Sequence record: PV806175.1
DNA from: Escherichia phage CCU7
DNA: 64,000 bases
Direction: 5' to 3' (one strand)
Position numbers and translations under genes: made by a program. Below are positions 58,160 through 58,963 of this stretch, piece by piece; position 1 is the first letter of the stretch; every line of letters starts with the position of its first letter. The notes beneath the pieces were generated by a model, which saw only the letters and a list, made by a program, of their open reading frames with translations, was not told the DNA's origin and searched no databases.

Positions 58160-58503
58160 CCAAAATGTTAGCTTTAATAGTTGGCTTGGTTTCATTTAAC
58201 GCTCTTGCTAATACTACATATACTGATGTAACGGAGTATACAAACAGAACGGCGTCTGATTATTGTGGTAAAAGTCAAGAGTGTAAAGTAGATTTTTCAC
58301 AAAAATTGTTATATGCGTATAAAGACGGAGAAAAAGATGGGGCGTCTAGTAGGTTCAAGGCGTCTACCTTAATTAAAAGATACTATAAAAAATGGCAAAT
58401 ATTAGAATGCTCGGTGGCGGAACCTAAAGATAAGGCAGCATGCAATTCTATGGTGGACCGTCTAGTTGACTCTTATACTAGAGGACTTGTAGCAAGTGAT
58501 TAA
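58156..58503 (+). CDS. small secreted protein (115 aa)
   Basis: Signal-peptide-like N-terminus MTKMLALIVGLVSFNALA; four Cys; at the vs position by synteny but signal peptide argues against a cytoplasmic role. Confidence 0.5.
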   Translation: MTKMLALIVGLVSFNALANTTYTDVTEYTNRTASDYCGKSQECKVDFSQKLLYAYKDGEKDGASSRFKASTLIKRYYKKWQILECSVAEPKDKAACNSMVDRLVDSYTRGLVASD

Positions 58504-58963
58504 AAACTATATCAAGGGCGATATTGTCGCCCTGTTTTCTAAAGGTAATAATATTGCTCATGGGTGCAATTGTTTTCATACAATGGGTGCCGGTGTAGCA
58601 GGTCAATTGGCAAAGGCTTATCCAAAAATTTTAGAAGCCGATAAACTTCAAACCGAATTCGGAGACGAGTCTAAACTCGGGACTTATTCGGTTTATGAAA
58701 AATATTTTAAGACCCATAAAGCTTATTGCTTTAATCTTTATACACAGTTTGAGCCGGGACCTAATTTTGAGTACTCTGCTTTAATGAATTGTATAATAGA
58801 ATTAAATGAATTCGGAAAAAATAAGATAACAAAGCCTGTAATTTATATGCCAAGAATTGGTGCAGGTATTGGTGGTGGAAACTGGGATGTCATCGAAGAG
58901 ATTTTAGATACGTATTCCACTAAACTAGAAATTGTGATTGTTGATTGGGAACCATTGTTATGA
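58496..58963 (+). CDS. macrodomain protein (TARG1/DarG-like ADP-ribose hydrolase fold)
   Basis: Motifs YIKGDIVALF...IAHGCNCFHTMGAGVAGQLA and MPRIGAGIGGGNWDVIEEI parallel TARG1 KGDLF...LAHCIS...MGAGIA and MPRIGCGLDRLQWENV. Confidence 0.65.
   Translation: MIKNYIKGDIVALFSKGNNIAHGCNCFHTMGAGVAGQLAKAYPKILEADKLQTEFGDESKLGTYSVYEKYFKTHKAYCFNLYTQFEPGPNFEYSALMNCIIELNEFGKNKITKPVIYMPRIGAGIGGGNWDVIEEILDTYSTKLEIVIVDWEPLL

Follow-up and report, generated by a model that had tools for sequence, protein, structure and literature searches.

The 64,000-nucleotide stretch of Escherichia phage CCU7 analysed here (sequence record PV806175.1; "the window" denotes this whole stretch) belongs to a Tequatrovirus-type phage and carries, between vs and tk.3, a gene for a 155-residue stand-alone macrodomain protein. 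This gene is an ordinary syntenic copy of T4 tk.4, which has already been described and is also known as adfM. The gene order regB, vs.1, vs, tk.4, tk.3, tk.2, tk.1, tk is common to the window, T4 and Escherichia phage CAU_ECP01, whose sequence is 99.8% identical to this region. According to Pfam, the proteins encoded around the tk.4 ortholog are RegB, an SLT protein (a weak match, Vs.1), DUF7202, Phage_zn_bind and DUF7438 proteins and thymidine kinase.

Orthology and distribution

The product of the gene and T4 Tk.4 have equal length and can be aligned without gaps over 155/155 residues with 84% identity, and the CAU_ECP01 protein XLQ29054 is 100% identical to it. The protein also matches PHROG 335 (expectation value, E=4.7e-67), and homologs (E<=1e-5) are found in 2,799 of 50,697 phage records, among them phages of Escherichia, Klebsiella, Salmonella, Pseudomonas, Vibrio and Acinetobacter. 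That tk.4 orthologs match the A1pp (macro) domain has been on record since 2006 (PMC1524935). A previous reading of this DNA, made from the sequence alone (hereafter, the sequence-only reading), had taken the gene to be absent from T4 and, consequently, not explained by core synteny. Neither statement holds, because the gene is T4 tk.4 in identical synteny, and an accessory insertion absent from T4 was likewise rejected, as tk.4 occupies the same place in that phage.

The differences between both copies are modest. Although all of the conserved active-site residues are kept in both, there are 25 substitutions, such as a lysine in T4 where the protein of the window has Gly127 (a lysine is found at this position in 5 of the 121 sequences compared below, T4 among them). 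Additionally, T4 tk.4 starts with ATG and overlaps vs by 4 nucleotides (nt), whereas here the start codon is GTG and the overlap is of 8 nt. Nothing in these differences suggests another function. The labels given to Tk.4 in GenBank vary by record between 'phosphatase', 'macro domain protein' and 'hypothetical protein'. For two distant relatives (P0112 and P0118), a DarT partner or a bacterial context was looked for; the contigs resemble phage DNA and show no ADP-ribosyltransferase close to the gene.

Fold and macrodomain class

This protein falls within the ALC1-like (TARG1/DarG/SCO6735) class of macrodomains. The Pfam Macro family (PF01661) recognises it with 28.3 bits, above the gathering cut-off of 22, and the two motif blocks that had led the sequence-only reading to propose a macrodomain of the TARG1/DarG class are present in the open reading frame (ORF) and align with those of human TARG1. 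When the Protein Data Bank is searched with the single sequence, the matches are BT1257 (6.5e-11), yeast Poa1p (1e-8), SCO6735, DarG and TARG1, and these values strengthen to between 1e-16 and 1e-10 when a profile of 40 relatives is used. AlphaFold gave an unusable model from the single sequence (predicted local distance difference test, pLDDT, of 35.6); the model used was built from a 40-sequence alignment, reaches a pLDDT of 95.3 and a predicted template modelling score of 0.90, and has a macrodomain fold that resembles dozens of macrodomains. In both sequence and structure, the nearest neighbours belong to the ALC1-like class (TARG1, DarG, SCO6735 and Poa1p), clearly ahead of the MacroD, viral and PARG classes. 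The class proposed by the sequence-only reading is, thus, confirmed by profile search and by structure prediction.

The active site

To describe conservation, residues were counted in the query and 120 retrieved relatives, which together make 121 sequences. Asp49, Asn80, Tyr82 and Gln84 are found in all of them (121/121 each) and Cys26 in 120/121. The position of Gln84 is the one occupied by the catalytic lysine in TARG1 (Lys84) and DarG (Lys80), and lysine is observed there in 0/121 sequences. In the multiple alignment, this site reads T-Q in the tk.4 ortholog, T4 Tk.4 and their relatives, G-Q in BT1257 and SCO6735, and T-K in TARG1, both DarGs and PhiKZ gp104. Similarly, the place of the TARG1 aspartate (Asp125) is taken by Gly126, and this position is either alanine or glycine across the family. 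In the M-G-A-G loop, 4 of the 121 sequences, all of them variants of the T4 group (protein cluster P0004 among the relatives noted), have lysine instead of the near-invariant Gly31.

The best guide to such a site is SCO6735, from Streptomyces coelicolor. With the family profile, hhalign matches this protein with a probability of 98.4% (E=7e-15), and both hhalign and MAFFT pair His22, Asn25, Gln84, Gly122 and Gly124 with SCO6735 His24, Asn27, Gln85, Gly126 and Gly128, respectively; all five are kept in T4 Tk.4. The SCO6735 sequence was obtained through a query with BT1257, and its numbering was checked against the published one (PMC9411070). It has been shown that SCO6735, an ALC1-like protein that has neither the lysine nor the aspartate, cleaves ADP-ribose linked to thymidine in DNA, protects against DarT and also uses a protein substrate (PMC9411070). 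Activity is abolished in the Q85A and Q85E mutants, almost abolished in N27S and lowered in G128E, while G126 touches the diphosphate; in the proposed mechanism, which is initiated by water, Gln85 positions the distal ribose (PMC9411070). Judging from these correspondences, the active site of the tk.4 ortholog is probably of the SCO6735 (Gln) type and neither of the TARG1 nor of the DarG type.

SCO6735 (PDB 5e3b) and the Bacteroides protein BT1257 (2fg1/2afc) are also, like the product of tk.4, stand-alone ALC1-like macrodomains with glutamine at the place of the catalytic lysine. However, their identity to it is only 22-30%, the motif is N-x-Y-T-Q in the tk.4 family and N-M-I-G-Q in SCO6735 and BT1257, and Cys26, Asp49, Asn80 and Tyr82 are invariant or near-invariant residues peculiar to the phage family with respect to SCO6735. 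Moreover, the SCO6735 gene is chromosomal and induced by DNA damage, whereas tk.4 is a phage gene.

The sequence-only reading had remarked that the aspartate of TARG1 was not obviously conserved, so that the protein could be divergent or limited to binding. The first part stands, as the aspartate is indeed missing, but TARG1-type catalysis does not, since the catalytic lysine is gone too and an invariant glutamine is in its place. A binding-only protein is unlikely, because in SCO6735 the same His/Asn/Gln/Gly set supports catalysis on thymidine-ADP-ribose (PMC9411070), and the preferred description would be that of a Gln-type enzyme that is active.

Table 1. Positions of the features of the tk.4 ortholog and of other elements of the window mentioned in the text.
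Feature	Position	Strand	Basis or comment
tk.4/adfM ortholog, stand-alone macrodomain protein, 155 residues, GTG start, TGA stop	58496..58963	+	ORF list, sequence
GAGG Shine-Dalgarno, 11 nt 5' of the GTG start, within the 3' end of vs	58481..58484	+	direct sequence reading
His22-Gly23-Cys24-Asn25-Cys26 motif	58559..58573	+	alignments, hhalign; His22 in 118/121, Asn25 in 119/121
Met30-Gly-Ala-Gly-Val-Ala35, macrodomain GxG loop	58583..58600	+	aligns with TARG1 MGAGIA; Gly33 and Ala35 in 121/121, Gly31 in 110/121; role of the loop from PMC9503650
Asn80-Leu-Tyr-Thr-Gln84	58733..58747	+	TARG1 profile alignment, MAFFT, hhalign (SCO6735, PhiKZ gp104); Gln84 at the TARG1 Lys84, DarG Lys80 and SCO6735 Gln85 position
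Pro119-Arg-Ile-Gly-Ala-Gly-Ile-Gly-Gly-Gly-Asn-Trp130, second Gly-rich (phosphate-binding) loop	58850..58885	+	holds Gly122 and Gly124, and Gly126 at the place of TARG1 Asp125
vs	58156-58503	+
Stem-loop, terminator-like	58515-58533	+	codons 7-13 of the tk.4 ortholog
MotA-box-like motif	58777-58802	+	inside the tk.4 ortholog, directed into tk.3-tk
Met-CAT and Arg-TCT tRNA genes	43772-43928	+	ARAGORN and Rfam
Genes with inconsistent labels in CAU_ECP01 (453-815 and 1295-1594 there)	about 55952-56314 and 56794-57093

Comparison with TARG1, DarG and Poa1p

Human TARG1/OARD1 (4j5r) shares with the tk.4 ortholog its class and its motif blocks, and it is also able to remove ADP-ribose from thymidine in DNA (PMC8501950). 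This overall similarity of motifs and fold, together with weak matches to the DarG models of PADLOC (E=9e-9) and NCBIfam (E=8e-8), is what could be said in favour of a glycohydrolase with the Lys/Asp dyad of TARG1 or with the single catalytic lysine of DarG. Nevertheless, three independent alignments place Gln84 at the lysine of both enzymes, and in the profile alignment the TARG1 dyad Lys84/Asp125 becomes Gln84/Gly126. Such catalysis is refuted at the level of the residues themselves, and we give this explanation next to no chance of being correct.

Membership in the DarG family was also rejected. The NCBIfam equivalog model NF048014 gives 31.9 bits, far below its cut-off of 250, and the match covers only model positions 4-146 of 338. 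DarG proteins (T. aquaticus 5m31 and M. tuberculosis 5m3i) have P-T-K with the catalytic lysine (K80 in T. aquaticus), where the tk.4 ortholog has Y-T-Q, and they possess a DarT-binding domain at the C-terminus and are encoded next to darT. By contrast, the phage protein consists of the macrodomain only, and neither an ADP-ribosyltransferase nor darT is found near its gene, the neighbours being vs and tk.3.

Yeast Poa1p (6lfq) belongs to the same class, but it has serine at the position of the glutamine, cysteine at that of Asn80, and small molecules as substrates. Regarding the residues mutated in its deposited structures, H23 corresponds to His22 and the place of S30 to Thr29, a position that varies across the family (T in 74, L in 12, V in 8, S in 6, Q in 6 and A in 4 of the 121 sequences).

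A role against DarTG2

The function of T4 tk.4 has been addressed in a 2025 preprint describing HIDEN-SEQ, in which a T4 insertion (transposon) library was grown on E. coli expressing DarTG2 (bioRxiv 10.1101/2025.11.20.689424). In this screen tk.4 was the single significant T4 hit on that host, its clean knock-out sensitised T4 to DarTG2 (plating there was done with M9 glucose at 30 C), and the gene was consequently named adfM, for anti-DarT factor Macrodomain (10.1101/2025.11.20.689424). The sequence-only reading had suggested that the protein could neutralise DarT-type ADP-ribosylation of DNA, and these results agree with that suggestion, for DarTG2 specifically and in an ortholog that is 84% identical; the copy of the window presumably does the same job.

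Considering all of the above, it is likely that the product of the tk.4 ortholog is an ALC1-like stand-alone macrodomain acting as an orphan 'antitoxin', which erases the ADP-ribose that DarT2 places on thymidine, probably through SCO6735-type chemistry. PhiKZ gp104, which takes DarT2 marks off DNA in vitro, offers a precedent among phages for such a stand-alone enzyme (PMC13309987). In the mechanism that we propose, the protein would be made during infection, while the DarT2 of the host would ADP-ribosylate thymidines of the single-stranded phage DNA and, in this way, block replication. The phage enzyme would then remove ADP-ribose from those thymidines, and this hydrolysis would be the basis of the protection. 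If the mechanism of the Gln-type enzymes applies to it, Asn25 would hold Gln84, which would in turn orient the distal ribose without the participation of a catalytic lysine, a water molecule would start the cleavage of the N-glycosidic bond, and the diphosphate would be held by the two Gly-rich loops.

Several observations weigh against this proposal. The genetic evidence comes from one preprint and from T4, a different phage from CCU7, and that preprint grades the removal of ADP-ribose from DNA by the tk.4 product as only something that 'seems likely', by analogy with AdfN, a NADAR enzyme that counters DarTG1 (10.1101/2025.11.20.689424). The AdfN of T4 is not active outside infection. Additionally, the SCO6735 lysines that position DNA (K34 and K89) are not kept in place, as they align with Ala32 and, roughly, with Pro87/Gly88, although other lysines might take over their role, and the tk.4 ortholog is mildly acidic (isoelectric point, pI, of 5.6), whereas the recovered region of SCO6735 has a pI of 9.7. 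However, PhiKZ gp104, which is biochemically active, is also acidic (pI 5.05) and, consequently, overall charge is uninformative as a test for DNA binding. Finally, one of the proteins of solved structure nearest in sequence is Poa1p, an ADP-ribose-1''-phosphate phosphatase acting on a small molecule, and soluble ADP-ribose derivatives are the targets that Iyer et al. predicted for most phage macrodomains.

The last two points, along with the activity of SCO6735 on a protein substrate, would also agree with a main substrate other than DarT2-modified DNA, the resistance to DarT2 being then one activity among several. Soluble derivatives (ADP-ribose-1''-phosphate, O-acetyl-ADP-ribose or immune signalling nucleotides) and ADP-ribose on protein or RNA, including the marks left by the phage enzymes Alt, ModA and ModB, are the candidates. 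Nevertheless, the sole phenotype recorded for tk.4 concerns DarTG2 specifically (10.1101/2025.11.20.689424), and the 'phosphatase' labels found in databases, that of PHROG 335 included, come from the old name of the A1pp domain and not from tests. Regarding RNA, it is reported that T-even phages with tk.4 still meet a robust defence in CmdTAC, which ADP-ribosylates mRNA (PMC11618068), so ADP-ribose on mRNA is apparently not erased by its product. On balance, we consider another main substrate unlikely.

Protection could also be obtained without catalysis, with the protein working as a stoichiometric inhibitor that binds DarT2, ADP-ribosylated DNA or free ADP-ribose. It has been observed that the catalytically dead variants SCO6735 Q85A, DarG K80A and TARG1 K84A still inhibit DarT in vitro (the so-called 'interaction-inhibition'), with SCO6735 being the strongest (PMC9411070), and both the canonical lysine and aspartate are absent from the tk.4 ortholog. 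Against such an inhibitor, the residues whose change is lethal for catalysis in SCO6735 (Gln, Asn and Gly) vary little or not at all among the 121 relatives, a pattern expected of an enzyme; furthermore, the DarT-binding domain that DarG has at its C-terminus is missing, the match ending at position 146 of the 338 of the model, and PhiKZ gp104 acts catalytically. Purely stoichiometric protection is, in our opinion, very unlikely, and enzymatic removal of ADP-ribose from thymidine remains the preferred explanation.

Two kinds of phage AdfM

Like the product of tk.4, PhiKZ gp104 consists of a stand-alone macrodomain and gives a phage protection against DarTG2. It has been shown to strip the ADP-ribose placed by DarT2 from an oligonucleotide in vitro and to rescue DarT2 toxicity (PMC13309987, Cell Rep 2026), and it is also named AdfM. 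Hence, the same name was given independently in two papers to T4 Tk.4, with Gln, and to PhiKZ gp104, with Lys. However, gp104 matches the M. tuberculosis DarG with E=9e-25 and keeps the lysine (F-P-T-K), in contrast to the glutamine of the tk.4 family; its identity to that family is ~21% (hhalign E=5e-9), and its BLASTP match with the tk.4 ortholog extends over 23 residues only. The T4-type and PhiKZ proteins are, therefore, members of different sub-families, which were probably recruited separately.

We lean, by a small degree, towards a broader version of this idea, in which the name AdfM covers two unrelated phage recruitments: a Lys-type protein derived from DarG, in nucleus-forming jumbo phages, and a Gln-type protein that is related to SCO6735 and BT1257 and forms a phage clade of very large size, marked by its own invariant residues. 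If this were true, the phage counter-measure to thymidine ADP-ribosylation with the widest distribution would rely on a poorly understood, water-initiated mechanism, and the extra invariant residues (Cys26, Asp49, Asn80 and Tyr82) could point to a substrate range broader than, or different from, that of DarG. The Gln rather than Lys catalytic type of the T4-type AdfM is a point that the accessible part of the HIDEN-SEQ preprint does not raise. T4-type AdfM bears, in any case, on two questions, namely whether a very common phage family has a true DNA ADP-ribosylglycohydrolase and how general the lysine-independent mechanism is.

Taken as a whole, the observation made by the sequence-only reading was correct and its functional idea was essentially so, whereas the premise of novelty and the TARG1/DarG catalytic type have to be abandoned. 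The correct function could be deduced from the sequence alone, yet the gene is a member of the standard T4 gene set.

Local layout and other observations in the window

The tk.4 ortholog lies within a tightly packed run of genes. Besides the overlap with vs mentioned above, its stop codon shares ATGA with the ATG of the next gene, and its Shine-Dalgarno is found inside the 3' end of vs, which is consistent with translational coupling; the gene is probably translated in this way. The same arrangement of Shine-Dalgarno and vs is present in T4, with ATG at the aligned start codon.

A scan for sigma-70 promoters between 55000 and 61500 found 22 sites when 22.1 were expected and, therefore, no enrichment. 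A MotA-box-like middle-promoter motif, TGCTTTA-N13-TAGAAT, is present inside the tk.4 ortholog and could be a middle promoter of the downstream genes; at the same site, T4 keeps TAGAAT, with CGCTTTA as the box. This kind of pattern is enriched across the window, with 11 matches against 3.6 expected, a number reached in 0 of 100 shuffles.

Near the beginning of the gene there is also a G+C-rich stem-loop of 8 base pairs, AGGGCGATATTGTCGCCCT, with GTTTTCT directly after it, so that it was flagged as resembling a terminator. T4 has the same 21 nt around this element, with different flanks, but this is not significant alone given the ~90% overall identity.

The product of the preceding gene, Vs ('valyl-tRNA synthetase modifier'), has an N-terminal hydrophobic segment similar to a signal peptide, MTKMLALIVGLVSFNALA, which is odd for a product credited with an action on a cytoplasmic synthetase. 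According to the HIDEN-SEQ preprint, vs is the T4 gene most strongly depleted in minimal medium (10.1101/2025.11.20.689424). The labels of neighbouring genes in CAU_ECP01 are inconsistent, since the Vs.6 ortholog is called 'pyruvate formate-lyase', the Vs.3 and Vs.8 orthologs 'endoribonuclease', and Vs 'valyl-tRNA synthetase'. Finally, the whole window has two tRNA genes only, on which both prediction programs agree, while the corresponding region of T4 carries eight; the tRNA cluster seems reduced in the window relative to T4.
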